DNA of 58,998 bases from an uncultured Tepidisphaeraceae bacterium (lineage in GTDB: Bacteria > Planctomycetota > Phycisphaerae > Tepidisphaerales > Tepidisphaeraceae): positions 1 to 58,998 of the forward strand of contig CAYUNS010000001.1 of the NCBI GenBank assembly GCA_964446155.1. The letters are read 5' to 3'. The notes below the pieces were generated by a model, which searched no databases, was not told the DNA's origin, and worked only from the letters and a program-made list of their open reading frames with translations. Below are positions 3,260 to 31,499 of the stretch, piece after piece. Made by a program: the position numbers and the translations under genes. Each line of letters begins with the position of its first letter. Position 1 is the stretch's first letter.

Positions 3260-3658
3260 TCACCGCTCAGTCTAAACCCGGCCGATGCGAAGTCCATCGG
3301 AGATGCCGTTGCAGAGGATTTCCCGAGACCGTCCATCGCCTCAAGGCGCAGGGGGGAAAGGTCGCGGACGGTGAGACATCGCCTTGTTCCTGAACGTTCC
3401 CGCATGGCGGGATCCGCGCATTGGCAGGCTCAAATCATCAAGGAATTGTTCCGTTTTCCACCTGCGCCCGGCGTTTGACGGGATTTCGGCATCCTTTGCC
3501 GTAGAAACGTAAGTCCAAGGGGGCCGGTGCGGGTTATGTTATCGATGTTGCCTGTACCACCGGGTTGCAGGAGATGCACTTCAACGTATGTCGGTTTATG
3601 TCGGCGAGCCATGGGGGGGTTGAAACTTGCCGGAGACACATATCACGAGGAGAAGGCT

Positions 3659-5569
3659 ATGCGAACGTGGACATGGGAGATCGATCGTGGCGGCGAGAAG
3701 GCGACCGGGAACCGGGGCTGGTCGGCATTGGCGATGGCGACAATGGGCATTGTGGCGCTGTCGCTGACGGGCGCGTCGACGGAAGCGGCGGTATGGAACA
3801 ACTCCGGAACGGATTTCAACGATGGCGAAAGCTGGGTGGATGGGCTTCTTCCCACGGGAGGCGTCGCCCAGTTCGACAGCGCGCCGATAACGCAGCCGGG
3901 CCTGAGCGCCGACATCTCGGTCGGCCAACTCAATTTCGCCACCGGCGTGAGCGGTTATACGTTGGGAGGCGCCGGAAAGCTCACGATGACATCCGCCACG
4001 GCGATCCTCGCCCAGAACAACAGCGGCACGAACACGATTACGGCGCCCGTGGAACTGGGTCGCGCGGCGGGGAACACTTTTTCGCAGACCGGCGGGGGCA
4101 CGCTGGCGATCTCGGGCAATATCACGGAGGCGAATGCGGGGACGGTGCTCAATTTGGCGGGCGGCAGTTCCATCTACCACCTCTCCGGCGACAACAGCTA
4201 CACGGGCGGGACGAACATCGGCAGTTCAAACATTCGCATCAATATCCTCGGCGCGACGGCGCTGGGAAGCGCTCGGATCAGTGTCGGCGCGAACAATCCG
4301 ACCTTCGACAACACCAGTGGCGGCGCGTTGACGATCACCAATGACCTCCAGTGGACCGCGGCTGTTCCGGCCATGACTTTCGCCGGCGCCAGCCCGCTGA
4401 CTCTTTCGGGCAATGTCGCATTGGACCAAAGCACCGGCGCGACGACGACAATCACCGTGTCCGGCTCCAGCGTTCTGACCTTGAGCGGACAGATCATCGA
4501 CAATGGCGGGGGAAAGAATCTGACCACGGCCAGCACAAGCAGCCCGGGGACGCTGGTGCTCGCGGGGAACAATACATACGGCGGCACGACGCTGGTGGGC
4601 GCGATCGGAACGTTGCGGATCGCGCATGACAATGCGCTGGGTTCCACCGCGAACGGTACGACGCTGGATGGCATCCTCGAGATGACCGGCGGGATCACCG
4701 TGACGGGCGAGGCGCTGCAAACCAAGGGCACGCTCAAGAACATTTCCGGTGACAATGAATGGGCCGGCGCGATCACGATTTATGGCGGTGCGTGCGTCTT
4801 TCAATCGGATACGGGCACACTCACGATCAGCGGTGATGTGAACGGCGACACAAGCGGCCGGCCGGTGACGCTGGCGGGCGAGGGGACCGTGATCCTGAGC
4901 GGCTCGATCGGTTCAAACGTGACTCCGGTTGCCAAGCATGGAGGGGGCCTCGCCATCCTGTCGGGAAGCAATCAGTACATTGGAGCCACCAACGTGTCGG
5001 CGGGCACGCTGCTGGTCAACGGAACGCATACGGGCGGCGACGATTACAACGTGGGCGCCGGCGGAACGCTCGGCGGGACGGGCATGATCGCGCTCCAGTC
5101 GGGCAAGACCATCAGCGTCACGGGCACGCTGGCGCCCGGCGGCGAGAGCCTTGGATCGCTTACGGTTGACGGCAATGTCGTCATCAACAGCACGGGCAGG
5201 ATGCTGGTGCGGGTGAACGCCGTCTCCAGCGACCTGCTCGCGGTGAGCGGCGATCTGACGCTGGCCGACGGTGGGGAGGAGACGGACCTCTCCCGCCTGG
5301 ACATCAGTGGAACCCTCGGGGGCATCGCGGAATATACTCTGGCGACCTATGGCGGCACGCTCAGCGGGACGTTCGACGAGGTTTATTTCAATGACGCGCT
5401 GGTTCTGAATCCGGAAGTCGGCGGGATCGGCGACTACAAACTGGTTTACGGCGCGGCGAGCGGGGGCGATGTCCGGCTGGTTCTCGTTCCCGAGCCGGCG
5501 TCGGTCACGGCGCTGCTGCTGGCGGGAGGCGCGGGGCTGCTGGCGCGTCATCGATCCCGTCGTTGTTAA
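3659..5569 (+). CDS. autotransporter-associated beta-strand repeat protein with PEP-CTERM sorting signal (surface adhesin-like)
   Basis: ORF 3527..5569. I moved the start to ATG 3659 (GAGGAG 6 nt upstream, hydrophobic signal-like segment WSALAMATMGIVALSLTGAST). Repeats LSGDNSYTGGTNIG, LAGNNTYGGTTLVG and LSGSNQYIGATNVSAGTLLVNG. The C-terminus VPEPASVTALLLAGGAGLLARHRSRR is a PEP-CTERM signal. Confidence 0.8.
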   Translation: MRTWTWEIDRGGEKATGNRGWSALAMATMGIVALSLTGASTEAAVWNNSGTDFNDGESWVDGLLPTGGVAQFDSAPITQPGLSADISVGQLNFATGVSGYTLGGAGKLTMTSATAILAQNNSGTNTITAPVELGRAAGNTFSQTGGGTLAISGNITEANAGTVLNLAGGSSIYHLSGDNSYTGGTNIGSSNIRINILGATALGSARISVGANNPTFDNTSGGALTITNDLQWTAAVPAMTFAGASPLTLSGNVALDQSTGATTTITVSGSSVLTLSGQIIDNGGGKNLTTASTSSPGTLVLAGNNTYGGTTLVGAIGTLRIAHDNALGSTANGTTLDGILEMTGGITVTGEALQTKGTLKNISGDNEWAGAITIYGGACVFQSDTGTLTISGDVNGDTSGRPVTLAGEGTVILSGSIGSNVTPVAKHGGGLAILSGSNQYIGATNVSAGTLLVNGTHTGGDDYNVGAGGTLGGTGMIALQSGKTISVTGTLAPGGESLGSLTVDGNVVINSTGRMLVRVNAVSSDLLAVSGDLTLADGGEETDLSRLDISGTLGGIAEYTLATYGGTLSGTFDEVYFNDALVLNPEVGGIGDYKLVYGAASGGDVRLVLVPEPASVTALLLAGGAGLLARHRSRRC

Positions 5570-5616
5570 GGGGAAGTGCATGGGGCGAAGTTGTCGTTGC
5601 CTAAAGAGGTGCCATC

Positions 5617-6462
5617 ATGTTCTTTCAAGATATTCCGACGAAGCGGACTCGGCGGGGATTTACACTGGTCGAGCTTCTTGTCGTCATTGGCATTATCGCT
5701 TTGCTTATCGCGATTCTGATGCCGGCGTTGAAGAAGGCGCAAAAAGCCGCGCAGTCCGTGGTATGTCAGAGCAATCTCCGGCAATGCGGGCTGGCTATGC
5801 GGATGTACTCCGACGATTGGCGCGGCGTGGTGGTTTCAGAGTATGTCGATACGGGAGGAGGCGTCTATCTCTGGCCACCGTTTGCGACGGGATATGGTCT
5901 CACCAGCACGCAGCAGAGCACGGCGTTTCTCGATGTGGGCAGCGGTGTCTTTGCGTGTCCGAGCAGTTGGGCGTATGTCGACGATCTCAACAAGAAGCTC
6001 TATGGCATCGGCGGCAGTGAGATATCCCGCAACTACGGCTATGGGATGTATGTCGCGCGTTCGGAAGCGGCGACGCTGGGCTTCGGCTGGGTGCAGAATC
6101 TGGGGCCTGCGGACCTGGATGTGAATTCCCAGGATGCATACAAGCCATCGATGCAACTCCATCACATCAATAAAGTCAAAAACGCCGCGGAAGTTGTCTG
6201 GATGGCGGACACGACGAGCAATCGATCGAGCTTTCTCAACTCCGGGGGATATGGGCGATCGATCGCGCAATTCACCGCGCAGGACATTTATCCCGGCTCG
6301 GCGTTGCATGGCGCGGCGATTCACTTGCTCCACGACAATGCGGCGAATGCGCTCTTTTATGATGGTCATGTGGAACGGATGACCAGGGAGCAACTCAGAT
6401 GGACGCGAGCGCACATCACACGTTTTTATACGTCGGATATCCAACCCATCCATGTGCCTTGA
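5617..6462 (+). CDS. DUF1559 family protein with prepilin-type N-terminal cleavage/methylation helix (H-X9-DG type)
   Basis: N-terminus [27 protein letters not shown]. The C-terminal HDNAANALFYDGH fits H-X9-DG. Confidence 0.85.
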   Translation: MFFQDIPTKRTRRGFTLVELLVVIGIIALLIAILMPALKKAQKAAQSVVCQSNLRQCGLAMRMYSDDWRGVVVSEYVDTGGGVYLWPPFATGYGLTSTQQSTAFLDVGSGVFACPSSWAYVDDLNKKLYGIGGSEISRNYGYGMYVARSEAATLGFGWVQNLGPADLDVNSQDAYKPSMQLHHINKVKNAAEVVWMADTTSNRSSFLNSGGYGRSIAQFTAQDIYPGSALHGAAIHLLHDNAANALFYDGHVERMTREQLRWTRAHITRFYTSDIQPIHVP

Positions 6463-6490
6463 CAGAGTCAGGGGCGCGGCTTTTCACGGG

Positions 6491-7309
6491 ATGAGATTCA
6501 TGATGATTCCACGGATCGGGAAGATGGTAGTGGTCGCGTTGCTGTTCACGGTCGCAACGGCGCTGGCGCAGGATGCGGAGCACGCGCGGCGGCAGGCGGA
6601 CATCTGGCGAAGCGCCGCTGCGGACAACGCCGGTCGATTCGAGCGGTTCGGCGAGTTTACGCGCGGTGACATCGAGCAGGCGACGAAGGATTTCGAGCAG
6701 GCGGCGCAGGCGTGGGAGAACGTGGCGGCGGCGATCGAGACAGGCGAGGAGGAAGTGATGACGGCAGCCCGGGAGCGCGCCGAGGCGATGCTTCCGGTCC
6801 GCCAGATGTGGCAGGATCGCTTTGACGCGCGGATGCGACAGGCCGGTCAGGCGCCAACCGAAGAATGGATCGCCAAACGCTGGGTTTCCGAAGCGGCCAG
6901 GCCGCAATTCGAGGCGTGGGTGGAAGCGCGCAAGGCGGCGGCGGAAGCCTGGGATGCGCTCGCGGAAGCCATCACGCCCAACGCCTCGCCGGAAATGGTC
7001 GCGGATCTTCGCGAACACGCGCAGATCGCGGATGGAGAAGCGGGAATCGCCGAATCCCAGTTTGTCTGGGCGCGGAGCCTGACATCGCAGTTGAGGGATC
7101 CGTCCGTGTCGTCCGAGCAATTGACCCTTGGTCTCCAGCATCTTCGCGAAATGGAAGAGGCCGTGGTTCGGGAGCGTCGGGCACTGCTGGAGCAGCGGCG
7201 GAAAGTGCTCGAATTGGAAGCCCGACGAAAGCAGGCGGAGCAACAGGTTCACGAAGCTTACGGGCAGGCGAAGGAGAGCCAGGTGGCGACCGTGCCTGCG
7301 GGTCAATGA
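6491..7309 (+). CDS. secreted Ala/Glu/Arg/Gln-rich helical (coiled-coil-like) hypothetical protein
   Basis: ORF 6452..7309. ATG 6491 gives the signal peptide MRFMMIPRIGKMVVVALLFTVATALA|QD. The rest is low-complexity helical sequence. No family recognised. Confidence 0.6.
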   Translation: MRFMMIPRIGKMVVVALLFTVATALAQDAEHARRQADIWRSAAADNAGRFERFGEFTRGDIEQATKDFEQAAQAWENVAAAIETGEEEVMTAARERAEAMLPVRQMWQDRFDARMRQAGQAPTEEWIAKRWVSEAARPQFEAWVEARKAAAEAWDALAEAITPNASPEMVADLREHAQIADGEAGIAESQFVWARSLTSQLRDPSVSSEQLTLGLQHLREMEEAVVRERRALLEQRRKVLELEARRKQAEQQVHEAYGQAKESQVATVPAGQ

Positions 7310-7377
7310 CCCGGGCGTCGATCATGCCGCCTCCGCGCTGCGAGGGGATCGAGTTCCGCGAATACGAGGAGTTGAAG

Positions 7378-8691
7378 ATGATTTTTGGGCGCTCACGTCT
7401 GCCGGTCCTGATTTTCCCGCTGCTGGCGATGCCGTTGCAGGCCGGGACGGTGGAAACGACGAAAGGGCAGGCATACGAAGGGGAAATCCATTTCGAGGCG
7501 CCTGAAACGGTCGTGGTGCATCCGGCGCGAGGCGAAGCGGTGCATGTTCCGTTGGCGGAAGTGACGCGATTGTCCCGCACGTCGCGCACGAAGCATTCAC
7601 CGGAATCGCCACTTTCGCCCTGGTTGTCGGAGGATGTTGGCCGAGTAAAATTGCCCGGCAAGGCGGCATTCGACGCGGGGCATCTCCGAATGTCGGGAGC
7701 CGGGTGGGGACTTGAAGGAACCAGGGACTCCTTTCATTTCATCCATCAGCCGTTGAAGGGCGATGGACAGATTGTGGCTCGACTGGATACGCCGCTCGGC
7801 GACTTCGGCGCGCGAGGGGCTTTGATCGTTCGCGAAAGCCTGTCCGCCGATGCACGGTCCATTTCACTGGCGTTGAGACCTCACAGCGACGCGCGCCTGG
7901 GTAGCCGCCCCTGGCTCCAGGGGGAAGATTCGGCCTGGCTGGCCGAGCCGCCACGCTGGGTCCGGCTGATCCGCGAGGAGGATCATTTCTCGGCGTTGTC
8001 GTCGATGGACGGCAAGACGTGGCGACTGTTGGGCGAGCGCGACATCGATCTCCCCGACGAAGCGTTGTGGGGAGTGGGGGCGTGGACGACCTCCAACATG
8101 TCGCTCGGCGAGATGATGTTCAGCCATGTCCAGGTCATCGACGGGCCTGCATATACAACGTTTGTGCCTGATTCGCCTTTCCCATCCCGCGGCGTGGTGC
8201 TGGTCGACGGCACGCAGGTGGCCGGCGATGAATTGCGCGTGACGGAAGGACGAGCGCGATTCATGCATGCCGGAACGGAGCAAGAGGTTTCACTGGACCA
8301 GGTGGCGATGCTCATCTTCAATCCGGTTGAAGCGGATGTTTTGGCGCTGGCCGAGTCCAGGTCGGGCGCGCTGCTGGTCGATGGAGACGTGTTTGAGGGA
8401 GAACTGGTCGGTCTGGAAGACGGCAAGGCGAATATGAACTCGGTCATTTTCGGTTCCGCGACGTTCGAGGTGGAAAGGGAGTTGGCCGCGGTGCTGTTTC
8501 GGGCGGTGCGTCCGCGGGATGCGACGTATATCATCGCGACAGCGGATGGAACAGCCTGGCGAGGAGAGAAAGTGACGTTCGGCGACAATGTCGTGATCGT
8601 GGAAGGAACCGCCTGGGGAACGCGGACATTGCCGGCGGGGGAAGTCACCGGGATTCAACGAGGGGGAAATGAAACCGACAACGATGGCTGA
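7378..8691 (+). CDS. secreted hypothetical protein: ConA/LamG-like (DUF1349-like) core flanked by about 45-aa repeated beta modules
   Basis: ORF 6865..8691. The first 171 codons overlap the previous gene and look non-coding. ATG 7378 (GAGGAG upstream) gives the signal peptide MIFGRSRLPVLIFPLLAMPLQA. Core: FHFIHQPLKGDGQIVARLD...GALIVRESL...DGKTWRLLG. Confidence 0.6.
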   Translation: MIFGRSRLPVLIFPLLAMPLQAGTVETTKGQAYEGEIHFEAPETVVVHPARGEAVHVPLAEVTRLSRTSRTKHSPESPLSPWLSEDVGRVKLPGKAAFDAGHLRMSGAGWGLEGTRDSFHFIHQPLKGDGQIVARLDTPLGDFGARGALIVRESLSADARSISLALRPHSDARLGSRPWLQGEDSAWLAEPPRWVRLIREEDHFSALSSMDGKTWRLLGERDIDLPDEALWGVGAWTTSNMSLGEMMFSHVQVIDGPAYTTFVPDSPFPSRGVVLVDGTQVAGDELRVTEGRARFMHAGTEQEVSLDQVAMLIFNPVEADVLALAESRSGALLVDGDVFEGELVGLEDGKANMNSVIFGSATFEVERELAAVLFRAVRPRDATYIIATADGTAWRGEKVTFGDNVVIVEGTAWGTRTLPAGEVTGIQRGGNETDNDG

Positions 8692-8712
8692 TCGCCCGTT
8701 GTCGGTTTCGTT
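8671..8712. terminator. 13-bp perfect hairpin between convergent genes (candidate bidirectional terminator)
   Basis: GAAACCGACAACG (8671-8683), a 13-nt loop containing the TGA stop at 8689-8691, then CGTTGTCGGTTTC (8697-8709), followed by GTTCTTCATT. It lies between the 7378..8691(+) and 8774..10444(-) gene ends. Confidence 0.5.
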
Positions 8713-8773
8713 CTTCATTCCAGTCGCATCAGGGTTCCGGATTTTCGCGGAAACCTCACATCATGAAATGATC

Positions 8774-10444
8774 TTAACCAGCGGCGGTTTTCCGGGTGGA
8801 ACGATTCCGCGGGTCGCTTCTTAAACCGGACACGGACGGATCGATCGTAACATGCAGGTTTGTTGTGGCGGAGACGATGGGATCGGTGACGGTCACTCCC
8901 ACGATGAAGGCCCGCGCGTTGTCGGGGCGGGTGAGAATCTGGCCGGCGTGTTTGAGCGTCTTCACGAGCGCATCCGAGGGCACATCCTGCACGGCCGAGT
9001 TTTCCTCCAGCGAGATCGACGCGGCGATCGCCGCCGATTGCCCGAGCACCATCAGCACCGGTTCCATGCGAATGGAGCCGAAGCTGATATGGGACGCCGA
9101 GAGGCAGAACAGCACGAGCAGGTTGGTGCATTCGCCGCGTCTGGGGATGATCGAGCGGTATGAGACCGGATACGGGAGAATGCCGCCGGCCTGCACGTCC
9201 CCTTCATTGACGACGCGGCCATTCAGAATGATCCGGCGGCAGTTGTGGGAGTCCATCGCGTAGGCCGCCATCGCCACCGGGTCTTCGGCGACCGCGTGGC
9301 CGCGACAATGTCGCTCGGACATGACGTAATCGGAGATCATTCGGCGGCTTTCACGGACGTAAAGCTGATGAGGCCAACCGCCGCAGTCCTGGAATTCATC
9401 GGCACACAAGCCCCATTCGCGCATGCGCTCGCGGATGGAGTCGGGGATTTCCGGATCATTGGCGAGGCACCACATCAGCCCTTGCTGCCAGGAGACATGA
9501 GCCTGGAAGATGCGTTCGCGCGATGCATAGTCGGCTTCGGGATAGCCGTGATTCATCCCGATGAAATCGGTGGAGACGGCGCCGTGGTTGTTGGTGTCGG
9601 TCTTGTCGTTTTGGACAGGGTTGAATTCGCGGAAGACGTCATTCCATCCTGTGGCGAGGACGCGTTTGAGCAGAAGATAGGATGCGGGGTTGTAATCGGC
9701 GGGTTTGGGGAATGGCCGCCGCAGTTCCGACCGGCGGGTCAGGCACATACGGAAGTTGTATGCCTGGACGCACGCATCCCCCTGTCCCCGCCGATATTCG
9801 CCGCTCGCATCGATCCCGGGCAGCACGCCGCTGGAGGGAACGCCCGGCATGACATAGGGATCGACTGGAGCTTCAAACTGGTGTCCCTCGTGCATCTGCT
9901 CGCCGTTGATGGTTTCACCATGAACGGAGTTGGACTCGCGCCCAACGGTGTAGGAGACGCCCGCGCCGGCCATCAGGTCGCCTTCGTAGCTGGCGTCGAT
10001 GAACATTTTTGCCTTCACGGTCAGCCCGCTGACGGTGCGAAGGGCGACAATCGCGCCATTCGCCATCGCAACATCGGACAAGAACTGCCTCCGGAACACG
10101 CGGACATCGGTTTCATCAAGCCAGTCTTCGAGCACCTGCTCGGCCACATGTGGCTCGAAGCGCCATTCCACGGGCACGCCATAATGGCGTCCGACGCGTT
10201 GATAGAATTCGCGCGCCAGTCCGCCGATGACATGTTTGTTTCCCACATCGGTCATGCCCAGCCCGCCGGTGGTCATTCCACCGAGATGCGCGCTGGGCTC
10301 GAGCAGGATGACATCCAGCCCGCGCCGGGCGGCCTCGATGGCGGCGATCACTCCGCCGGCGATGCCGCCGTAGATGCACAGATCCGCGGTCAGGATTTGA
10401 GGTTCATGAGGAGCAGGCTGGTAATAATGTGGATGGGTGGGCAT
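8774..10444 (-). CDS. FAD-dependent oxidoreductase (FAD_oxidored/PF12831-like)
   Basis: Dinucleotide-binding N-terminus DLCIYGGIAGGVIAAIEAARRG, then LEPSAHLGGMTTGGLG. This family is commonly found in PVC/Bacteroidota glycan loci. Confidence 0.8.
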   Translation of the reverse strand: MPTHPHYYQPAPHEPQILTADLCIYGGIAGGVIAAIEAARRGLDVILLEPSAHLGGMTTGGLGMTDVGNKHVIGGLAREFYQRVGRHYGVPVEWRFEPHVAEQVLEDWLDETDVRVFRRQFLSDVAMANGAIVALRTVSGLTVKAKMFIDASYEGDLMAGAGVSYTVGRESNSVHGETINGEQMHEGHQFEAPVDPYVMPGVPSSGVLPGIDASGEYRRGQGDACVQAYNFRMCLTRRSELRRPFPKPADYNPASYLLLKRVLATGWNDVFREFNPVQNDKTDTNNHGAVSTDFIGMNHGYPEADYASRERIFQAHVSWQQGLMWCLANDPEIPDSIRERMREWGLCADEFQDCGGWPHQLYVRESRRMISDYVMSERHCRGHAVAEDPVAMAAYAMDSHNCRRIILNGRVVNEGDVQAGGILPYPVSYRSIIPRRGECTNLLVLFCLSASHISFGSIRMEPVLMVLGQSAAIAASISLEENSAVQDVPSDALVKTLKHAGQILTRPDNARAFIVGVTVTDPIVSATTNLHVTIDPSVSGLRSDPRNRSTRKTAAG

Positions 10445-10796
10445 ATCGAAACACCAGTAAGATCAGTGAGCTGTTTTGCTCGATGCATCGCCGAGGCTCG
10501 AAACGGACGAGCCAGTCGTGAAAACATACCTCGTGTCTTCCGGTGACGGATGCGTACTCTGCGTCAAACCATTCCAAATTCCCGTAATCGGCCGTTTCGA
10601 CGGGTTGTGCGTGGATGACTGAATCGGCGTCGGCGACGAAAAAGAGGAATGCATTGACGAAGAAACGGTCTGTCGCGAACGATGGGAGCGGGTAGCATTC
10701 AGAACGAATGAATGGAGGGGGAACGGCGGGCCTTTCCGGGATGATTTATCTTCGCGGCGCTGGTGGTTTGCCGCGGACAGAAAGGAATGTCACGTC

Positions 10797-13118
10797 ATGC
10801 GATGGTTTCCGATTTTTGTCACCACGGTTTTGGCGATGCTGTGCATCCAGGGGTCGGCGAGCGCGGGAGGGCCGGTTTCCCTGCTGGATGGTGAGGAGAA
10901 GGATTTCGGTTGGCGTTTCGGTGACGGGCCTGAATTTCCCGGTGCCGTGGGGTCGCTCTCCGCCGACCCATCGATGAAATACAACGATCGTCCGTCGCTG
11001 AAACTGGAATCCAATTTTTCCGCCGGCGGGGCATATGTGCAGGCCGGTCGAAACATCCCCTCCGTCGAAGTCCATGAATTGTCGTTCTGGATGAAGGATC
11101 CGGATTCGGAAGGGCTGACTTTCCGGCTGATCGACGATGCGGGGCAGGTTCATCAATTCAAGCTTCGCAAGCCGAAGTCCGCGGATTGGCAGCAGGTGGT
11201 GTTTCCCCTGGAGCGGTTTTTTGCAGGGCGGGGAACGGAAAACGCCGTGCCCGGGGTGACACAGTATCAGCATTGGTCCGGTCCGAACGATGGGAAATGG
11301 CGTGGTCCGGCCAAAGCGATTTATGTGTTGTCCTCGAAGAAGGAAGCGGAGGTTCGGACGATGTGGCTTGGCGATATCGCCGCGACACCGCCCCCCGAAT
11401 CGCCGAAGACGATTGTGCGTCTGGATGAGTTTCCCGACGGCCGGATCGACTGGGAATTTCTCCCAGGACATGACGCCCCCGGAGCCAAAGGCTCGCTTGC
11501 CGTGACGGAGGAAATGCCCGCGCCGGGGCAATCCGGGCTGACCCTGACGGCCGACTTTTCCGAAGGCGGCCAGCAGGTGGGGATGCTCAGGGAACTGAAG
11601 GGCAATGTCACGGCCGTTGTTCTTCGATACAAGACCGATGACGTGCAACTGGTGACCATTCGCATGGCCGACGCCACTGGGCAGGTTCATCAACGCCGGC
11701 GCATGAAGCTTACGGCGGATGGCAACTGGCATGAATTGGTCATCAAGCCCCAACAGATAGCCGGTGGAGATCGTGCCGGCGGCGCGCGAGACGGCGTGTG
11801 GCATGCGCCGGCGGCGTGGGTGTCAATTTCCATCCCATACTATTCCAAGCCGGAAACAACCACATATGCCCTGCACCTGGCCGACATCCGCGCCGAGTTT
11901 GTGCAGGGCGAGGAGAATTTCGAGATGACTCAATCGATCGTGAACGAGCCGATTCCAACCCTGCTGCCCCTCGCGGAAAACCCGCGGTCCCGTCCGGCAT
12001 ACGGTTTCGAACTCACCTATCGCTGGGAAAACGTCAAGCCGATGTCGAGGGACTACACGGTCTTTGTCCATTTCGTCGACAAGGACGGCAAAACGGTGTT
12101 GCGCGATGACCATCAACCGCCGACGCGGACAAGTCGATGGAACGGCGATGTGAAATATACGCGCAAGATATTCCTTCCCCTGTGGATGCCCGATCGCAAT
12201 CGCACGCTTCCGCCGTTGCCCGATGGGGAATATGCGATCTATGCCGGCCTGCATGATGAGCGGGGGCGCAAGCCCGTTCAGTCGGGTCCGGGCGTGCAGG
12301 TGGACGGCGAGCAGCGTCACAAGATCGGCGTGCTCACCCTCGACAGCAATCTTCCCGCGCCGCAACTCGGTCCGGAATCAGTGGACCTGCCCGGCTACAA
12401 GATGACCTTCAGCGACGAATTCGATGAGCCGCTCAGCGTATCGGCCTGGGGGCCATGCGGTCCGGGCGGGACGCGATGGATCGCGCACACACCGTATCGA
12501 GGGGACTTCGGCGACGCTCGCTTCGCCGATCCCGCGCCGGAGTTCCCGTTCACGGTGAATGACGGCGTCCTCCGCATCGAGGTGAGCAAGCGGGACGGGC
12601 GCTGGGAAGGCGGGCTGCTGGCATCGGTCGATCCCGAGGGCAACGGTTTTTCACAGACCTATGGATACTTCGAGATGCGCGCCAAGCTTCCCGAGGGTCC
12701 GGGCACATGGCCGGCGTTCTGGATTCATGCCCTTCAGCGTGTGACCAATTACGCGGACAAAACGTTGACCGATCTTGAGATCGACGTTCTTGAGCAATAC
12801 GGACATTGGCCGAACAAGCTCAGCACCGCCGTTCATCAATGGAATCGCAGCGGCGGTCCCAGTAAAAACGAGGGCAAGAATTTCCTCGTGAGCGGCATGA
12901 CCGAGGATTTTCATGATTACGGAGTGCTGGTCACCGAGGAATACATCACGTTCTATTTCGATGGCGTCGAGCTTCGTCGGGAAAAGACCCCGCCTTCCGG
13001 GCACGGCCCGATGTATGTCATGGTCAACCTGACGCTTGGTCCGGGTTGGCCGCTGGATAAGACGCCCAGTCCGTCCTATTTGTATGTGGATCATGTTCGG
13101 GTATATGCAAAGGAATGA
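10797..13118 (+). CDS. secreted multidomain glycoside hydrolase family 16 enzyme (two CBM-like modules + shared unknown module + GH16)
   Basis: Signal peptide MRWFPIFVTTVLAMLCIQGSASA. Two tandem CBM-like repeats (..EFPGAVGSLS.. / ..DAPGAKGSLA..). GH16 catalytic motif LEIDVLEQ (ExDxxE) and YFEMRAKLPEGPGTWPAFW. Confidence 0.8.
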   Translation: MRWFPIFVTTVLAMLCIQGSASAGGPVSLLDGEEKDFGWRFGDGPEFPGAVGSLSADPSMKYNDRPSLKLESNFSAGGAYVQAGRNIPSVEVHELSFWMKDPDSEGLTFRLIDDAGQVHQFKLRKPKSADWQQVVFPLERFFAGRGTENAVPGVTQYQHWSGPNDGKWRGPAKAIYVLSSKKEAEVRTMWLGDIAATPPPESPKTIVRLDEFPDGRIDWEFLPGHDAPGAKGSLAVTEEMPAPGQSGLTLTADFSEGGQQVGMLRELKGNVTAVVLRYKTDDVQLVTIRMADATGQVHQRRRMKLTADGNWHELVIKPQQIAGGDRAGGARDGVWHAPAAWVSISIPYYSKPETTTYALHLADIRAEFVQGEENFEMTQSIVNEPIPTLLPLAENPRSRPAYGFELTYRWENVKPMSRDYTVFVHFVDKDGKTVLRDDHQPPTRTSRWNGDVKYTRKIFLPLWMPDRNRTLPPLPDGEYAIYAGLHDERGRKPVQSGPGVQVDGEQRHKIGVLTLDSNLPAPQLGPESVDLPGYKMTFSDEFDEPLSVSAWGPCGPGGTRWIAHTPYRGDFGDARFADPAPEFPFTVNDGVLRIEVSKRDGRWEGGLLASVDPEGNGFSQTYGYFEMRAKLPEGPGTWPAFWIHALQRVTNYADKTLTDLEIDVLEQYGHWPNKLSTAVHQWNRSGGPSKNEGKNFLVSGMTEDFHDYGVLVTEEYITFYFDGVELRREKTPPSGHGPMYVMVNLTLGPGWPLDKTPSPSYLYVDHVRVYAKE

Positions 13119-13243
13119 CGGCATGCATGGTCGGCCGATCGCTCCAAGGGGCTTCCGGGACCAGCGCAAGCCATGCGCGCCAGGCATGAAAACACGAGTG
13201 CGTTGGATGTGCCGGGAAGTTTTCCGACATGTGCCGGAGGCAT

Positions 13244-14407
13244 ATGCAGCCCCATCGTCGCGTCATTCTGCTGATCGAGGCCACCTCGGCCTACGGCCGC
13301 GGATGCCTGCGCGGCATCGCCCGCTATGCCCGCGCGCGTGGTGGATGGATCTTCTTCCACCGTCTGCGCTATCCATTCGAGTTGTTGAAATTCAATGAGC
13401 TGCGGAATTGGAACGCGGATGGCATCATCGCGCGCATCGATAATCCGTCGGTCGCGCGGATCGTGCGGCGGCTTGCCTTGCCGGCGGTTGATCTCAGCGG
13501 ATCGTCGGTGATTGAAGGCGTGGCCGGCGTGTTTCCCGATCACCGGAAGATCATCACACTGGCGGCCGAACACCTGGTTTCCAATGGCTTGCGCAACCTG
13601 GCGTTCTGCGGTTATCCCGGCGTCTATTTTTCGGATTTCCGCCAAGGCGTGTTTGACAGCGAAGTGCAGGCTCAACACGGCGTCAAGTGCGTTTTTGAGC
13701 CTCCCCCAATCACCGATGCGATCTCGTATGAGCAGCGCGGCGTTCTTGACGCCGAGGCGCTCCAGGCATGGGTCGGGCAATTGCCCAAACCCATTGGAGT
13801 CATCGCGTGCAGCGACACGCGCGGCCGGCAAGTCCTGGAAGCCTGCGATGCGGTGGGCATCAAGGTTCCCCACGAAGTTTCAGTCATCGGGGTGGATGAC
13901 GATGATGTCGTTTGCGAATTGTCCAACCCGAGACTCAGCAGCGTGGTGCCGAATGTGGAAACCACCGGCTACGAGGCGGCACGACTGCTCGATCGTCTTT
14001 TTGGCGGCGAACCCTGTCCCGATGAACCTCTGCTCATTCCGCCCATCGCCATCGAAGGCCGCACCTCGAGCGACATGACCGCATTGAGCGATCCGGCGCT
14101 GGCCGCCGCGGTGCAGTTCATCCGCAACCGGGTGGGGGAGGGAATTAACGTCGAGGATGTCCTCGCGAAGGTGGAAATCTCCCGCTCGACATTGGAGCGG
14201 CAATTCTACGAGCACCTGGGTTGCACGCCTCACGAATTCATCCTGCGCTGCCGGATCGAGCGGGCCAAGCAGTTGCTCCTGGACACGGACTATCCTCTGG
14301 CGCGGATCGCGCGGATGGCGGGTTTCCGTCGTGTCGGCCACATGATCACCGTTTTTCGCGAGCGCTCCGGGCAAACGCCCGCCAAATATCGCCGCGCGAC
14401 GAACTGA
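13244..14407 (+). CDS. XylR-like transcriptional regulator (periplasmic-binding-protein-like sugar sensor domain + AraC-type HTH)
   Basis: ORF 13229..14407. N-terminal PBP-like domain (RVILLIEATSAYGRGCLRGIARYA, IGVIACSDTRGRQVLEAC, VSVIGVDDDD). C-terminal AraC HTH (ISRSTLERQFYEHLGCTPHEFILRCRIERAKQLL...IARMAGF). Confidence 0.8.
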   Translation: MQPHRRVILLIEATSAYGRGCLRGIARYARARGGWIFFHRLRYPFELLKFNELRNWNADGIIARIDNPSVARIVRRLALPAVDLSGSSVIEGVAGVFPDHRKIITLAAEHLVSNGLRNLAFCGYPGVYFSDFRQGVFDSEVQAQHGVKCVFEPPPITDAISYEQRGVLDAEALQAWVGQLPKPIGVIACSDTRGRQVLEACDAVGIKVPHEVSVIGVDDDDVVCELSNPRLSSVVPNVETTGYEAARLLDRLFGGEPCPDEPLLIPPIAIEGRTSSDMTALSDPALAAAVQFIRNRVGEGINVEDVLAKVEISRSTLERQFYEHLGCTPHEFILRCRIERAKQLLLDTDYPLARIARMAGFRRVGHMITVFRERSGQTPAKYRRATN

Positions 14408-14436
14408 TGCGGGGGCATCGGCGATGAATGGGTGTT

Positions 14437-15687
14437 TCATGGGATTTTTTGGTAGACGCGCACATGATCGACTTCCATCACGGATGGGTTGGGGGTTTTG
14501 TCGATCGGCCAGCCGCTGCCCAGCGCCAGGTTGACGAGGATGTAGAACTCGGCGTTGGCCTCCGGGGGCGTCGGTTGGCGCCACAGCTCGACGCCGTCGA
14601 AATACCAGATCATCTCCTTTTCGTCCCAATAGAAACCGTAGTCGTGAAAATTCTCGGTCATATCGGAGACGATGAAGTAATCTCCGACACCGCGATGCCC
14701 GCCGTCCTTGAGCCACCAGTGATAGTTGGCGTGGAAGTTCCGCGGCGCGTGGCCGTACTGTTCGAGGATGTCGATCTCGAAGCTTCCGAGCTTTCCGTCC
14801 GGTCCCCTGTAGCGCTGGTCGCTCAGCAACCAGAACGCCGGCCAGGTTCCGGGGCCTTGGGGCATTTTGGCGCGCATCTCGAAATAGCCGTATTTCTGCC
14901 TGAAACCATTGGAGTCGGCGTCGTTTGAACAAAGGAGACCGGATCGCCACCGGCCGGATTCATCCTTGCGCGCCTCGATGCGGAGGATGCCGTCCACGGT
15001 GGTGAAGGGAAAGCCGTCGCGCGGGCTGGTGAAGAGGGCGTCGCCGAAATTACCGTCATCGGGCTTGTGGGCGATCCAGCGGGTCTTGCCCACGATCGGA
15101 CCATACGCGGAGATCGCCAGGTCATCGAACTCGTCGCTGAATGTGAGTTCGAACTGCGACAGATCGAGCGTTTTGGGCTTGTCCGAGTCGAGCCGGGGTT
15201 CGGGCGCGTCGGCGTCAATCCTGACCGAAGCGACGGTGTAACCCCGCTCGTTGTTCGGTTGAACGCCGGGTCCGGCGTTGAGGGGCTGGCGGCCTTCCTG
15301 TCGATTCCACAGGCCGACCACCACGCGATAAACGCCGTCGGGCATGTCGGCCGGAACGATGATCCGCCGCGTATAGCTGGCTTTGCCTTCCCACGTCGAG
15401 GTTTTCGTCGGCCAGGGCAGCGTGTGATCGTCCTGCGCCATGGTTCTGCCGGATTCGTTGACGAGGTGAACGAAGACATCGTAGTCCTTTCCCATGGGTT
15501 TGCCTTCCCACAGGTAGTTGATCTTGAAGGCCCTGCCCGGCGGAACGGTGTCAGGCTCGATTCCGGCGGGGAGCGCGGTGGGGAGATCGGGCTGGTTGCC
15601 CGGCTCCCGTGCCGCTGCACCGGCCGGCAGGACCAGAAGCAGACCGGCGAGGAGCGTAAACAATGGAATGGCGATGGAGAATGACAT
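14437..15687 (-). CDS. secreted glycoside hydrolase family 16 enzyme (paralogue of the C-terminal half of 10797..13118)
   Basis: ORF 14437..15711. ATG 15687 gives the signal peptide MSFSIAIPLFTLLAGLLLVLPAGAAA. Catalytic FEIDILEQ, plus YFEMRAKMPQGPGTWPAFW. Confidence 0.8.
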   Translation of the reverse strand: MSFSIAIPLFTLLAGLLLVLPAGAAAREPGNQPDLPTALPAGIEPDTVPPGRAFKINYLWEGKPMGKDYDVFVHLVNESGRTMAQDDHTLPWPTKTSTWEGKASYTRRIIVPADMPDGVYRVVVGLWNRQEGRQPLNAGPGVQPNNERGYTVASVRIDADAPEPRLDSDKPKTLDLSQFELTFSDEFDDLAISAYGPIVGKTRWIAHKPDDGNFGDALFTSPRDGFPFTTVDGILRIEARKDESGRWRSGLLCSNDADSNGFRQKYGYFEMRAKMPQGPGTWPAFWLLSDQRYRGPDGKLGSFEIDILEQYGHAPRNFHANYHWWLKDGGHRGVGDYFIVSDMTENFHDYGFYWDEKEMIWYFDGVELWRQPTPPEANAEFYILVNLALGSGWPIDKTPNPSVMEVDHVRVYQKIP

Positions 15688-15750
15688 GGAGAGAATCCCG
15701 GTGAAACACAATCGACTCGCGTCCCCGTCATGCGGGGCGCGACCACCCGA

Positions 15751-16452
15751 TCATTCGGTGATGCGCAGGACGATGTTGCCGTAAACCTGTTCGTCGAAAT
15801 TTTTCGTGCCGATCAGGACCAGTTCGTTGAACGAGGTGATGGTGGCGTCGGTGAAGGCCACCGACGCGCCCGCGCCCTGGTTCCACGCCTTGCCGGAGAA
15901 GGTCCATCGGCCCTGGGCATCGCGGGTGATGGTGAGAGGGTTCAGCCCGCCGCCGTCCTTCACGCTCTTCTGCGTGCCGTCGATTTCCTCGTTCGCCCAG
16001 GTCTTGTCCCCGGGCGCCACGCGATTCTTCACCGGCGCCCACTGGACGGCCCACTCCGCCTTGACGCGCCGCGTCTCGAACACATAGCCGTTGCCGTCGG
16101 CGTCCAGCAGCATGAAGGAGACCAGGTCCGCGCCCTGATCGGCATCGCCCCAGCCCCAGCCGACATCGAGCGACAACTCGAGCTTCGTTGGATTCCTGAT
16201 TTCATCGAACGTTTTGCTGAGCGTGCCGTCCGGTTCGTTGGCTTTGAAGCGGACGATCCAGCCGGGATTGTTGGTCGCGTCCGGGTACTTGTAAGTTTCC
16301 CAGGCGCCGTCGGCTTTCCAGCCCTGGGCGTCGATGTCTCCCTTGGAGAAATCGGCGTCGATGACGGTCGTCTGGGCGGGGGCGATTGCCGCCGTCCAGG
16401 CCCCGAACAAAGCGCAGGCCGCAATGGTCAGTATGCGTCGCATTGATTTCAT
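15751..16452 (-). CDS. secreted hypothetical protein, probable beta-sandwich/lectin-like fold
   Basis: ORF 15751..16491. ATG 16452 (or 16443) gives the signal peptide MKSMRRILTIAACALFGAWTAAIAPAQT. The mature part is rich in beta-strand-type alternation (WIVRFKA, LELSLDVGW, YVFETRRV, WTFSGKAW). No family recognised. Confidence 0.6.
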   Translation of the reverse strand: MKSMRRILTIAACALFGAWTAAIAPAQTTVIDADFSKGDIDAQGWKADGAWETYKYPDATNNPGWIVRFKANEPDGTLSKTFDEIRNPTKLELSLDVGWGWGDADQGADLVSFMLLDADGNGYVFETRRVKAEWAVQWAPVKNRVAPGDKTWANEEIDGTQKSVKDGGGLNPLTITRDAQGRWTFSGKAWNQGAGASVAFTDATITSFNELVLIGTKNFDEQVYGNIVLRITE

Positions 16453-16491
16453 CCCATCAAGAAGGGGCGGTCGCCGCCGTCGGTGTTTCAT

Positions 16492-17337
16492 TCACTCCGG
16501 CAGGATGAGTCGTTCCTGCTTGTCGCGTGTATGGAAATATCGCGGCCCGGTGGGGGTGGCGTGGATTTCCCTGGCGGTCATGGTTTGGGCATGTCCGTCA
16601 TAGAAGGCGACGTTGGCGACTCCTTCCGCGTTCGTGCCGTGCTGGAGATGGATGCCGGCCCAGTAATGAGCTTGCTCGAACGGTGGACCAAAGGCGCCCA
16701 GCATGAAGCCGCCGCCGTTGTTTGGCCAGATTCCAAACGACCCATGGTATGAGATGGTGTCGGCCATCATCACCATTTCCGCCGGGGGGAAGGTGGGGCT
16801 GGACCACTTCTGGTAGGTGAGATACCAGTGGTTACCGGGGAGCTTCACTCGCTTCTGGAATTGTCCGCTGTCGGAGTCGTTGCGGAAGTAGTACAGACCG
16901 TAGCCGATCTGTCCGAACTCGTTTCCGGCCTGATCCGGTCCCCAGTTCATGGATGCGTCGTAGTATCGTGTTGATGGGCAGACGGCGACCTTCATGTTGA
17001 GGTAGACCGGGTTTTGCCGGCCGTATCCCGTGTCCCGTCCTCCGACGACAAACCACGGCCAGAACCGCAGGGCCGCATAGACGCCGGCGCTGTCAGGTCC
17101 ACCTTCCAGGATGACGGGGATGCGTCCGTCGTTGGCGTTGGCGTACATTTGCAGCGCCACCGCGCATTGCCGCAGATTGCTGAGGCACGCGGTGGTGCGC
17201 GCCGCTTCCCTGGCTTTGTTGAGCGCCGGCATCAGTATGGCTATGAGAAGGGCGATAATGCCAATGACCACAAGCAGTTCCACCAGCGTGAATCCGCCGG
17301 CTCGGTTGTGATGGCGGGATGAGAAGGTGAAAACCAT
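16492..17337 (-). CDS. DUF1559 family protein with prepilin-type N-terminal cleavage/methylation helix
   Basis: ORF 16492..17370, with ATG 17337 preferred. N-terminus [27 protein letters not shown] is nearly identical to 5617..6462. C-terminal [10 protein letters not shown]. Confidence 0.85.
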
Positions 17338-17440
17338 AATGAACCTCTCTTCCGGGCGATGGGTGTACATGCGGACGTTTCTCGAAAACCGGCTGACCTT
17401 CCCCCCGCGTCCGGCGGTGCGGGGGGAAGGCCACGCAAGC

Positions 17441-18169
17441 TCACCCGTTCGAGCGGCGCCGTGCCAACAGCGACAGACCGCCGAGAGCCATCAGCGCCAT
17501 CGCGGTCGGCTCGGGCACCGGGACGATCTGGAAGCCCGCGAATCCGACGTTTGCGCCGCCGGTGTTGAGCAGATCGAAGAACACCGATTCGCTGGTCAGT
17601 CCGCTGAACACCGCGTAATTGGTGATTTCGCTCGGGTTTTCCGAATCGGTGGAAGTGGCCTGTGCGTACGTGAGAGAAGTATCGGCGGTGATGAAGTGGA
17701 TCGTCGTTCCATTCGCCGTCACGCTGCCGGCGCGGTTGCCGGGACCACCAAAGTAAACGTACAGGTCGTACGCTTCATAAGGGATTTCGGCGATCGAAAC
17801 GCGGAGAATTTTTTCGCCGGTCGTCTCACGAAATTGGGAGAGAAGACGGCGATCGCCGCTGTCGCCTGCATTCGGGAAGGATGAATACCACCCACCTCCA
17901 TAGCCATAGTCTCCACTATTCACCAGGCTGTAATCCGCGGTCGTTCCATTCCCATCACTGTCGATGAGGTTGGACGCCGCGCTGCTGCCGACGTTGTTCC
18001 AGTTGTCGACATGCACGCCCGGCGCGCCTGCGGTCTGTTCCGAGGTGATGATATGATCCTCGCTGATACGAAGATTCACGCTGATGACGGCCGCCTGCGC
18101 GGCGCTGCCGCCAAGCCCCAGCATGGCCACGAGGCCCATAATCGTCCGAAATGAAATACGCTTCGTCAT
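17441..18169 (-). CDS. PEP-CTERM sorting-domain surface protein
   Basis: ORF 17441..18232. ATG 18169 gives the signal peptide [26 protein letters not shown]. The C-terminus [25 protein letters not shown] is a PEP-CTERM signal. Confidence 0.75.
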
Positions 18170-18321
18170 TTTCTTCTCCTTCAGTTCACAAGTTGCGTTC
18201 GACCCCAAACGAAATGAAATACGATCTGCCATTTTTCGCTCCTTTTAGGTTGAGAAATGCATTTGATCTCCAATGAATCGCCTCAGGAAGTTCCATGGAT
18301 AGCCGACTGACCGGCACCCGA

Positions 18322-18759
18322 TCACCCGTCGCGCCGCTCCCCGGCTTCGGCGGGGGGTTCCATATTTTCGGGTTTCTCCGGGGTTTTTTCGGCATCGGGT
18401 TCAGCGCGTTGTTGGGCCTCCTTTTCCGCCCTGGTGTCGGACTCGGTGCGGGCCTCGGCTTCCTCCTGCGCCTTGACGTCCGATTCGGTGCGTTTCTGAG
18501 CCTCCTCTTCAGCCCTGGCGTCGGATTCGGCGCGAAGCTCGGCCTCTTCCTGCGCCCTGGCATCCGACTTGGCGCGGAACATGGCTTCCTCCTCCGCCTT
18601 GAGGTCCGACTCGGCGCGGGCGTCGGCTTCCTCCTGCGCCTTGACATCCGACTCGGTGCGGGCCTGGGTTTCTTCCTCGGCCATCGCCTGGGCGTTTCCT
18701 CCCGCCGCGCCCAGCAAACACCCCGCAGTCACCACAACAGCAAGTTGAAACATTTTCAT
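18322..18759 (-). CDS. secreted acidic tandem-repeat protein (14-aa R-[TA]-E-S-D-x-[KR]-A-[QE]-E-E-A-x-x repeats)
   Basis: Signal peptide MKMFQLAVVVTAGCLLGAAGGNAQA, then six full 14-aa repeats. This is the only one of the three overlapping ORFs with a signal peptide and protein-like composition. Confidence 0.6.
   Translation of the reverse strand: MKMFQLAVVVTAGCLLGAAGGNAQAMAEEETQARTESDVKAQEEADARAESDLKAEEEAMFRAKSDARAQEEAELRAESDARAEEEAQKRTESDVKAQEEAEARTESDTRAEKEAQQRAEPDAEKTPEKPENMEPPAEAGERRDG
18385..18684 (-). repeat. 42-bp head-to-tail tandem repeat array (six complete copies plus partial flanking copies)
   Basis: Period-42 units such as cctggtgtcggactcggtgcgggcctcggcttcctcctgcgc / cttgacgtccgattcggtgcgtttctgagcctcctcttcagc recur across 18409-18660 with degenerate ends. 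There are no unique spacers, so this is not CRISPR. Confidence 0.85.
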
Positions 18760-19133
18760 CGTGCATCTTCCTTAATCAGGATTCACTCATTGGTTTGAAT
18801 CCGGGTGAATGGTCACAGGTCATACACATTCCGATTGGATACCGGCCAACTCGGACAAGCCTCGTCGCCCGCACGGCGCTTTGTCGACTCCGTCGCGTCG
18901 CGGCACGCCGCCGCCCGTATTTTCTCCACGACGGCATCACGGTCGCGGGCAACCAAAGAACGACAAAAAAACCGGACTTCCAAAGATTTGTACCAGGCGA
19001 TGGCCACCTGGCGGTTATCGGTCATGCCGTTCCCGAACTCCGCCGACAACCACCGATCGCACGAGTGGAAGAATACCCCGGAACAGGGATGTGCCAAGAT
19101 GAATATTATCTTGAAATCATATAAGATTGTCTT

Positions 19134-29264: not shown

Positions 29265-29399
29265 GAACGTCTCCGCGAATGGTTTGACCGGACGCCGGAC
29301 GGACTTACAATGCGTCCTTCAATACTGACGGGTCGGTTTTTGCGAACTCCGCCCCGATGGTAAATCCCTTTTGTCCCCAGGGCAAGCGAAAGACCGGGC

Positions 29400-31432: not shown

Positions 31433-31499
31433 ATCGGGGTGCAACATCGAACCGCCTGACGGATAACATTATTTGTCCCGCGCGTTCTCCAGGAGACGC

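Follow-up and report, generated by a model that had tools for sequence, protein, structure and literature searches.

Pilin-like DUF1559 genes beside PEP-CTERM, ConA-like and GH16 genes in a candidate beta-glucan utilisation cluster of a Tepidisphaeraceae bacterium

What do two pilin-like proteins of the DUF1559 family do among genes for surface-sorted proteins, lectin-fold proteins and glucanases? The question is raised by a 58,998-nucleotide stretch of DNA from an uncultured Tepidisphaeraceae bacterium (contig CAYUNS010000001.1 of assembly GCA_964446155.1; hereafter the window, by which we mean the whole stretch), on which two short gene sets, here called cassettes A and B, lie on either side of a three-gene core. 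DUF1559 is among the largest paralogous families of Planctomycetes, with 68-100 copies per genome and no assigned function (PMC10632474, PMC8567305), and two of its paralogues are essential in Planctopirus limnophila (PMC10632474). Planctomycetes can take up polysaccharides whole, and dextran binds to pili-like fibres (PMC5394234); the genes for polysaccharide capture in this group have not been assigned (PMC12078418). An earlier annotation of this DNA, the original prediction, put the two cassettes forward as a candidate for an undescribed glycan-capture system. The assignment of genes is indeed new, but the concept is not, since a 'fishing rod' role of pili in polysaccharide uptake by Planctomycetes had already been hypothesised in print (PMC5394234; PMC12078418).

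Our analysis suggests that the locus is a XylR/AraC-controlled cluster for beta-1,3-glucan utilisation with two envelope modules, in which DUF1559 proteins would be coupled to surface-sorted or secreted carbohydrate-binding proteins and to endo-glucanases. We give this reading a probability of roughly 45%, somewhat short of even odds. The cluster is built on DUF1559 and PEP-CTERM proteins, and all of its components belong to known families. The window and the comparisons made with it link a defined DUF1559 subfamily to sugar regulators, PEP-CTERM proteins, ConA-like proteins and endo-glycanases, and so offer a concrete, testable handle both on a large unassigned family and on polysaccharide capture in Planctomycetes. 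If the reading is true, glycan utilisation is organised here unlike in the polysaccharide utilisation loci (PULs) of Bacteroidota, in a phylum that plays an important part in the carbon turnover of sea and soil; otherwise we are dealing with a GH16/XylR beta-glucan cluster of the ordinary kind that happens to have abundant envelope genes close by. The genes concerned are as follows, with lengths in amino acids (aa).

A1, 3659-5569, + strand: secreted beta-helical protein with PATR repeats and a PEP-CTERM tail (PF12951, 31.8 bits; TIGR02595, 16.7 bits against a cut-off of 16)
A2, 5617-6462, + strand: prepilin-type (class III signal peptide) DUF1559/HX9DG pilin-like protein (N_methyl, 31.7 bits; PF07596, 26.2 against 23.3; HX9DG weak, 17.2 against 19)
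A3, 6491-7309, + strand: secreted Ala/Glu/Arg/Gln-rich protein with a signal-peptide-like N-terminus; no Pfam match at E <= 0.01
A4, 7378-8691, + strand: secreted protein with a signal peptide and a predicted DUF1349-like, ConA-type domain (residues ~80-255); no Pfam match at E <= 0.01
Core, 8774-10444, - strand: FAD-dependent oxidoreductase without a signal peptide (PF12831, E 1.6e-105)
Core, 10797-13118, + strand: secreted GH16 endo-beta-glucanase of 773 aa with two N-terminal tandem repeats (PF00722, E 4.9e-17)
Core, 13229-14407, + strand: XylR-type regulator (PBP1_XylR, Peripla_BP_3 and AraC HTH domains)
B4, 14437-15687, - strand: secreted GH16 endo-beta-1,3-glucanase of the laminarinase type (PF00722, E 6.9e-20)
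B3, 15751-16452, - strand: secreted protein with a predicted ConA-like (L-type lectin-like) beta-sandwich; no Pfam match, assigned by structure model and Foldseek
B2, 16492-17337, - strand: prepilin-type DUF1559-like protein, paralogue of A2 (N_methyl, 28.7 bits; PF07596, 21.0, under the cut-off of 23.3)
B1, 17441-18169, - strand: small secreted PEP-CTERM protein, its domain assigned to no family (PF07589, 23.7 bits against 20.7)
Flanking cassette B, 19134-19967, + strand: AraC-family regulator (HTH_18, HTH_AraC and AraC_binding domains)

All 11 genes of the cassettes and the core were recovered at these coordinates and in these families, and the positions that the original prediction had given for the eight cassette genes and for the FAD oxidoreductase, GH16, XylR and AraC genes were all reproduced.

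Are the two cassettes copies of one another? They had been described as mirror images, which holds for their architecture: A runs on the + strand and B on the - strand, the two are convergent, and each is operon-like, with co-oriented genes separated by gaps of 28-103 base pairs (bp). It does not hold for their descent. By BLASTP, A2 and B2 are the only homologous pair between the cassettes (38% identity over 283 aa); A1 and B1 have nothing in common beyond the sorting tag, and B3 is related to neither A3 nor A4, the lectin-fold proteins coming from unrelated families. The paralogue of B4 is the central 773-aa GH16 (49% identity over 399 aa), and cassette A therefore has no GH16 enzyme of its own. 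An origin of the cassettes as duplicated units was rejected, paralogy being limited to A2/B2 and the two GH16 enzymes. The genes within a cassette may be co-transcribed, to judge from the gaps alone. At 18322-18759 on the - strand, 152 bp upstream of B1 and on the same strand, there is also a gene for a small secreted and very acidic protein with about six tandem 14-aa repeats (42-bp period, 18436-18677) and no Pfam match, which could be a fifth member of cassette B.

The arrangement in the window exceeds chance: a six-frame motif scan of the 59 kb finds exactly two prepilin motifs and two PEP-CTERM tails, which make up two adjacent co-oriented pairs, and in a simulation with 48 genes the chance of two such pairs is ~1.5e-4. 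Does the same adjacency appear in other genomes? Our sample consists of 80 loci taken from GTDB species representatives, almost exclusively of Planctomycetota, and picked for containing a DUF1559-type gene; the adjacency statistics derive from a crude in-house gene caller and regular-expression motif detectors. When PEP-CTERM stops and prepilin motifs on the same strand are compared within +/-10 kb, 8 of 34 stops precede the motif by 0-300 bp and a ninth by 332 bp. Counted by gene, 9 of the 98 DUF1559 genes are immediately preceded by a PEP-CTERM gene in the same orientation, where shuffling of labels within loci gives 2.9 on average (P = 0.001). This null is a conservative one, as the locally high density of PEP-CTERM genes is preserved in it. 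PEP-CTERM is moreover the commonest Pfam family among the co-oriented upstream neighbours (5 of 68), which also include sugar regulators and Laminin_G_3 proteins. The scope of the original prediction, PVC (Planctomycetota-Verrucomicrobiota-Chlamydiota) bacteria, has to be narrowed. The best matches in the locus sample are metagenome-assembled genomes of Phycisphaerales, Phycisphaerae and Tepidisphaerales, and the closest relatives indicate Planctomycetota, probably Phycisphaerae, and not PVC bacteria at large or Verrucomicrobiota.

Downstream of DUF1559 the picture is broader. Of the genes immediately downstream, 75% share the orientation of DUF1559 and 57% have a hydrophobic N-terminus, compared with ~35% elsewhere. 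Small beta-sandwich proteins lead among the 77 downstream neighbours (CarboxypepD_reg 7, DUF4198 5), PEP-CTERM accounts for 4, and the others include FG-GAP, dockerin and Laminin_G_3 proteins, two GH5 enzymes, GH53, GH29, GH89 and a pectinesterase. In Pirellulales the usual gene 3' of DUF1559 encodes a small lipoprotein-like beta-sandwich of the CarboxypepD_reg/DUF4198 kind (12 of 77; for example L060:4468-5870), and one locus, L083:3326-11477, holds two consecutive triplets of PEP-CTERM, DUF1559 and small lipoprotein genes. This form may be a more general unit of DUF1559 with a beta-sandwich partner.

The loci that hold relatives of A2 show which neighbours recur. In the lines below, percentages after a locus are identities to A2; the loci called distant hold family members from the 80-locus scan, with 27-60% identity over the best segment, often the N-terminus alone. 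Coordinates after a locus are those of a XylR-DUF1559 pair.

L004, 58%: PATR/PEP-CTERM gene, DUF1559 and LacI; a further set comes after these, made up of a PEP-CTERM protein that weakly matches L-type lectins, a paralogue of it without the tag, another DUF1559 and a large secreted protein
L088, 38%: Peripla_BP_3 regulator, 609-aa PATR/PEP-CTERM protein, DUF1559, DUF1559, GH5
L089:9684-11762, 45%: DUF1559, XylR (61% to that of the window), FAD oxidoreductase (51%)
L090:6010-8154, 38%: DUF1559, XylR (58%)
L091, 56%: divergent PEP-CTERM gene upstream
L092, 57%: divergent gene akin to the N-terminal repeats of the 773-aa GH16
L016:5683-7847, distant: XylR homologue, DUF1559, GH53
L021:1167-3421, distant: divergent XylR homologue beside DUF1559, then a 1089-aa LamG-domain protein
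L031:6086-8225, distant: divergent XylR homologue directly beside DUF1559
L062, distant: divergent FAD oxidoreductase homologue (48%) directly beside DUF1559

What recurs are the pair of a PEP-CTERM gene followed by DUF1559 and the grouping of a sugar regulator, DUF1559 and a lectin-fold protein or glycoside hydrolase. The architecture of A1, PATR repeats with a PEP-CTERM tail, precedes A2 relatives in L004 and L088 as well, with sequence similarity to A1 shown for the L004 protein only. This DUF1559 subfamily recurs by sugar sensors (XylR, LacI, and GntR with a periplasmic-binding-protein domain), ConA-like proteins and GH5, GH53 or GH16 enzymes, which is a PUL-like logic, and clusters of the window's type appear to be modular and substrate-specific, with GH16 here and GH5 and GH53 in the relatives.

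The regulators deserve particular attention. In L089 and L090 an orthologue of the window's XylR comes right after the A2 relative, and more distant homologues lie directly beside DUF1559 in L016, L021 and L031, which makes five independent loci with this adjacency, at gaps of 112-345 bp and in co-oriented or divergent order. Such placement suggests direct control of DUF1559 genes by sugar-responsive regulators. The FAD oxidoreductase of the core, for which no solved relative was found by sequence, also has counterparts in this setting: L089:11920-13527 lies downstream of the DUF1559-XylR pair and L062:3789-5372 is divergent beside DUF1559.

What kind of protein do the DUF1559 genes encode? 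A2 and B2 each carry a class III signal peptide, with cleavage after RRG in A2 and after AGG in B2, and both score above the prepilin thresholds (21.2 bits for N_methyl; 26.5 and 19.3 bits for TIGR02532, against 16.3). The near-identical N-terminal helix that the original prediction had pointed out is present in both. Either protein aligns to positions 2-32 of the 268 in the PF07596 profile and no others, and at 281 aa each is short for DUF1559. The families named earlier for the locus are borne out by the DUF1559, N_methyl, HX9DG, PEP-CTERM and GH16 models, with the DUF1559 score of B2 and the HX9DG score of A2 staying below threshold. Across 35 homologues including A2 and B2, residues F15, T16, L17, E19, C50, S52, N53, C114, P115, H239 and D249 are invariant and G250 and H251 nearly so. 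Since H239 and D249 are invariant and G250 almost, the HX9DG signature is present despite the marginal score of A2 (TIGR04294), and C50 and C114 form a conserved cysteine, or disulphide, pair.

The AlphaFold2 model of A2 (predicted local distance difference test, pLDDT, 91; predicted TM-score 0.86) has an N-terminal helix of ~50 residues (17-67) and an alpha/beta head. Foldseek against the PDB returns weak pilin matches only (1ay2, 3sok and 8tj2, E ~1) and no periplasmic-binding-protein match, and the DUF1559 profile run against PDB sequences matches only the N-terminal helix of pilins and pseudopilins. Because of the model, the pilin-only matches and the helix-only profile match, we take A2 to be a type IV pilin-like protein whose predicted head of ~210 aa has no solved relative. 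A Verru_Chthon cassette was also considered and set aside: TIGR02596 reaches 22.9 and 28.5 bits against a cut-off of 70, and TIGR02599 ~16 against 256.5, through the N-terminal helix only.

The Pfam identifier of the family, SBP_bac_10, invites a different thought, namely that DUF1559 is an oligosaccharide-binding protein anchored in the inner membrane, which feeds an importer or signals to the adjacent XylR. In classical xyl operons the binding-protein gene sits next to the XylR-type regulator, and in L016, L021, L031, L089 and L090 that position is held by DUF1559. Periplasmic binding proteins are, however, expected to show a two-lobed fold, whereas the confident A2 model has a single pilin-like head, and neither this model nor Foldseek supports the solute-binding-protein fold that the name implies. 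There is moreover no transporter in the window's glycan cluster or directly beside DUF1559 in L016, L021, L089 and L090, and XylR-type regulators work in the cytoplasm, where they bind the ligand themselves. Thus, while DUF1559 proteins do occur in membrane fractions (PMC8567305), a receptor of this kind seems to us very improbable.

The proteins encoded upstream of A2 and B2 each combine an N-terminal signal peptide with a PEP motif, a hydrophobic helix and a basic C-terminal tail, that of A1 being VPEPASVTALLLAGGAGLLARHRSRRC. Such a tail marks a protein for sorting to the cell surface by an exosortase. A1 was weighed as a type V autotransporter and rejected as such: its PATR repeats are of the passenger type, but it ends in the PEP-CTERM tail without a C-terminal beta-barrel, and no autotransporter barrel domain was found in it. 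B1 has no similarity beyond the tag to the other PEP-CTERM proteins sampled, and the PEP-CTERM proteins beside DUF1559 genes are diverse, with no common domain found among them. Tail and signal peptide are thus as in the PEP-CTERM/exosortase system, and, unlike in that system, exosortase and extracellular-polysaccharide biosynthesis genes are absent from the 59-kb window. To our knowledge, pairing with a pilin-like gene is not part of that system as described. We found no paper linking PEP-CTERM with prepilin-like or DUF1559 proteins in Planctomycetes, the HX9DG/PF07596 and pseudopilin-dyad literature being judged from titles and abstracts.

The secreted partners differ from one another. A3, which has no Pfam or NCBIfam match, had been called a coiled-coil protein; it is probably helical, and the composition (49% of its residues are A, E, R or Q) is the one basis for a coiled coil. 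A longer open reading frame of 608 aa (6865-8691, + strand) extends A4 upstream and overlaps A3 (6452-7309, + strand) in a different frame, and a naive longest-frame caller picks this wrong model; since the extension is Arg/Gly-rich and has a non-coding look, separate A3 and A4 genes are preferred.

A4 appeared at first sight to be an orphan, with three word-indexed matches, a view overturned by an exhaustive phmmer search that gives 9529 relatives. Full-length relatives of ~440 aa exist, and giant proteins of 1000-4100 aa contain as many as 11 copies of the domain at residues ~80-255. A4 itself matches DUF1349 only at E 0.065, the assignment to DUF1349/GH43_C2 being transitive through its relatives P0153, which has DUF1349 seven times (E 6e-42) and also GH43_C2, and P0189. 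By this route the domain is predicted to be DUF1349/GH43_C2-like and hence ConA-like.

B3 belongs to a small, uncharacterised family, of 29 proteins, without a Pfam model. Its AlphaFold2 model (pLDDT 92.6) is a jelly roll, for which Foldseek finds legume lectins, calreticulin and the lectin domains of SasG/Aap (probability 1.0, E ~1e-7, TM-score 0.5-0.59), and on this model we are confident in predicting an L-type-lectin-like fold. In other genomes some proteins of 399-403 aa carry the B3 domain as their N-terminal part.

If these proteins bind a glycan, which one might it be? Both GH16 enzymes are of the laminarinase type and have kept the ExDxxE catalytic motif, as EIDILE at residue 304 of B4 and as EIDVLE at residue 661 of the 773-aa enzyme, and the nearest solved relatives of B4 are endo-1,3-beta-glucanases or laminarinases (4crq, 2vy0, 3azx and 3atg; E 1e-21 to 1e-22). 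Judged by these relatives, the substrate is likely to be a beta-1,3-glucan of the laminarin type. The carbohydrate-binding module (CBM) that the original prediction gave to the 773-aa enzyme finds no backing in Pfam, the N-terminal 384 aa being without a match; what is there instead is two tandem repeats of ~120 aa, 30% identical to each other (E 1.5e-12), which are a candidate for an unclassified CBM. A domain related to these repeats (10797-11950, + strand, in the window) is encoded at L092:3-1052 on the - strand, divergent beside the A2 relative of that locus.

How could these parts work together? The two cassettes flank a core of the XylR-type regulator, the second GH16 enzyme and a presumably cytoplasmic FAD oxidoreductase. 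Each cassette encodes, in order, a Sec-exported PEP-CTERM protein, a DUF1559/HX9DG protein with a prepilin-peptidase site, and one or two secreted proteins of which at least one has a predicted ConA-like fold, with a GH16 enzyme in B only, and in the reading that we favour the cassettes would serve as modules for glycan acquisition in the cell envelope. The lectin-fold and PEP-CTERM proteins would bind glucan at the cell surface and the GH16 enzymes would cut what is bound, while DUF1559 would tie the co-encoded partners to a shared apparatus, resembling a type IV pilus or type II secretion system, that is encoded elsewhere in the genome. For this purpose DUF1559 may be either anchored in the inner membrane by its N-terminal helix or assembled into a short fibre, and each paralogue could act as an adaptor specific for a substrate or a partner. 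We infer the substrate, the contact of DUF1559 with its neighbours, the fibre assembly or membrane anchoring, and a role in capture and uptake rather than export. One may go further and suppose that the DUF1559/HX9DG paralogues are pilin-like adaptors switched by sugar sensors, which mount their PEP-CTERM or lectin partners on a shared retractile fibre and so bring glycan to the endo-glycanases and the periplasm, in a PUL equivalent unlike SusC/SusD; this extension is speculative and we think it unlikely.

Several results weigh against coupling of this kind. PEP-CTERM genes are not enriched downstream of DUF1559 (5 against 2.8 expected, P = 0.12), and 91% of the sampled DUF1559 genes have no PEP-CTERM neighbour upstream (~9% have one). 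A3 has no detectable relative in any fetched locus. Homologues of B3 on three long contigs (L005:8001-9212, L006:8001-9200 and L007:8001-8660) show neither prepilin nor PEP-CTERM nor GH16 genes within 8 kb, and B3 as an obligate partner of DUF1559 is rejected by these three contexts. P0005, the nearest widely distributed relative of A2 (49%), stands alone beside TetR/RND efflux and cytochrome c biogenesis genes. For B2 the metagenome collection yields N-terminal similarity only and no close orthologue, and since this is so and A3 lacks relatives, the four-gene cassettes are lineage-specific assemblies; as a conserved unit they do not stand, their specific gene sets not recurring elsewhere. The window lacks genes for pilus or type II secretion assembly (no match to T2SSE, T2SSF, secretin or peptidase A24 among the scanned proteins), an exosortase and a sugar transporter. 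Lastly, a promoter and terminator scan of 3000-19500 gives counts at chance level and is therefore uninformative on operon structure. The hairpin noted earlier at 8671-8709 corresponds to a weak terminator-like site at 8681-8702, within a scan that as a whole does no better than chance.

Taken together, could such results mean that there is no specific coupling at all, so that abundant and independent envelope genes have gathered in variable, horizontally shuffled and co-regulated regions, and the cassettes are chance assemblies in an ordinary GH16/XylR cluster? The family is certainly very large (more than 7500 matches to A2, and the 68-100 paralogues per genome of PMC10632474 and PMC8567305), the partners differ between cassettes A and B and between genomes, and the scarcity of upstream PEP-CTERM genes, the independence of the B3 family and the isolation of P0005 all fit. 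Against this, the adjacency exceeds even the conservative within-locus shuffle, the PATR/PEP-CTERM-DUF1559 pair is kept in three loci although DUF1559 itself has diverged to 38-58% identity, DUF1559 and XylR are neighbours in five loci, and the genes in the window are co-oriented at gaps of 28-103 bp. We therefore consider chance assembly unlikely.

A harder case is that of export. Here DUF1559 would be a pseudopilin-like, cargo-specific component of a type II secretion-like system that exports the co-encoded exoproteins, without binding or importing glycan. A2 and B2 have the class III signal peptide, their best NCBIfam similarity is to GspG and other pseudopilins (through the N-terminus only), and the A2 model has pilin architecture. 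The neighbours are overwhelmingly signal-peptide proteins, as is also reported in PMC8567305, and PEP-CTERM proteins, the most enriched upstream neighbour, need some route to the surface. Their diversity (adhesin-like proteins, lectins, glycoside hydrolases, FG-GAP and dockerin proteins) moreover fits generic export better than a glycan-specific role. On the other hand, GspD/E/F genes are not near the loci, save for one T2SSE/T2SSF locus among the 68 upstream neighbours, known type II systems use a fixed set of five pseudopilins rather than ~100 cargo-specific ones, and the tight adjacency to sugar regulators is equally well explained by capture. Genomics cannot separate a secretion adaptor from capture. 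We hold the former to be rather unlikely.

How do the DUF1559 proteins compare with known pilins? Like type IV pilins and type II pseudopilins such as PilA and GspG, the DUF1559 proteins have a class III signal peptide (G|FTLxE), a helix of ~50 residues on a beta-sheet head and the C50-C114 pair; unlike them, they have a head of ~210 aa that carries C-x-S-N and H-x9-D-G-H motifs of its own and is without a structural relative among PDB entries, and their genes are scattered singly next to genes for exoproteins instead of forming pilus or secretion operons, with tens to hundreds of paralogues per genome. As members of DUF1559/SBP_bac_10 (PF07596) and TIGR04294, A2 and B2 share the family's invariant residues, with A2 passing the Pfam threshold, and as in Tuwongella immobilis the flanking genes encode signal-peptide proteins (PMC8567305). 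A2 and B2 differ from the family as described in being short and in an association with PEP-CTERM, XylR and glycoside hydrolase genes that we did not find in the searchable literature. The fishing-rod hypothesis likewise has pilin-like proteins binding polysaccharide at the cell surface; it is based on microscopy of fibre-bound dextran and names no genes, whereas here candidates are put forward by genomic context.

Returning to glycan acquisition, is the locus a PUL? As in those of Bacteroidota, a sugar-sensing regulator, putative surface glycan-binding proteins and secreted endo-glycanases are joined together. Unlike in those, the window has no SusC-like transporter, no SusD, and no hybrid two-component or ECF (extracytoplasmic function)/anti-sigma regulator, and tethering would use PEP-CTERM tails and the pilin helix in place of lipoprotein anchors. 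Because SusC and SusD are absent, this is not a Bacteroidota PUL; the scan of window proteins gave no match to SusC/SusD, TonB_dep_Rec, Plug or ABC importers, in agreement with what the original prediction had said. Its proposal of a surface-tethered analogue of a PUL is thus partly supported by the families and their recurring context: the family and fold assignments, the adjacency and the setting among regulators and glycoside hydrolases speak for it, while the idea of a conserved cassette and the link of B3 to DUF1559 have fallen away.

The rest of the window holds further genes related to sugars, for a GntR-type regulator with a periplasmic-binding-protein domain, a PfkB kinase-HAD fusion, an epimerase and GH38, as well as housekeeping genes for RND efflux, MutS and TsaD. 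Rfam and tRNA scans of the window found nothing. The RND cluster at 27960-34727 (HlyD-type fusion protein, TetR, OEP and AcrB) recalls P0005, which adjoins a TetR/RND cluster at L001:4389-10828; this resemblance may be a coincidence. A lone HNH endonuclease gene lies amid the housekeeping genes, at 36249-36929 on the - strand.

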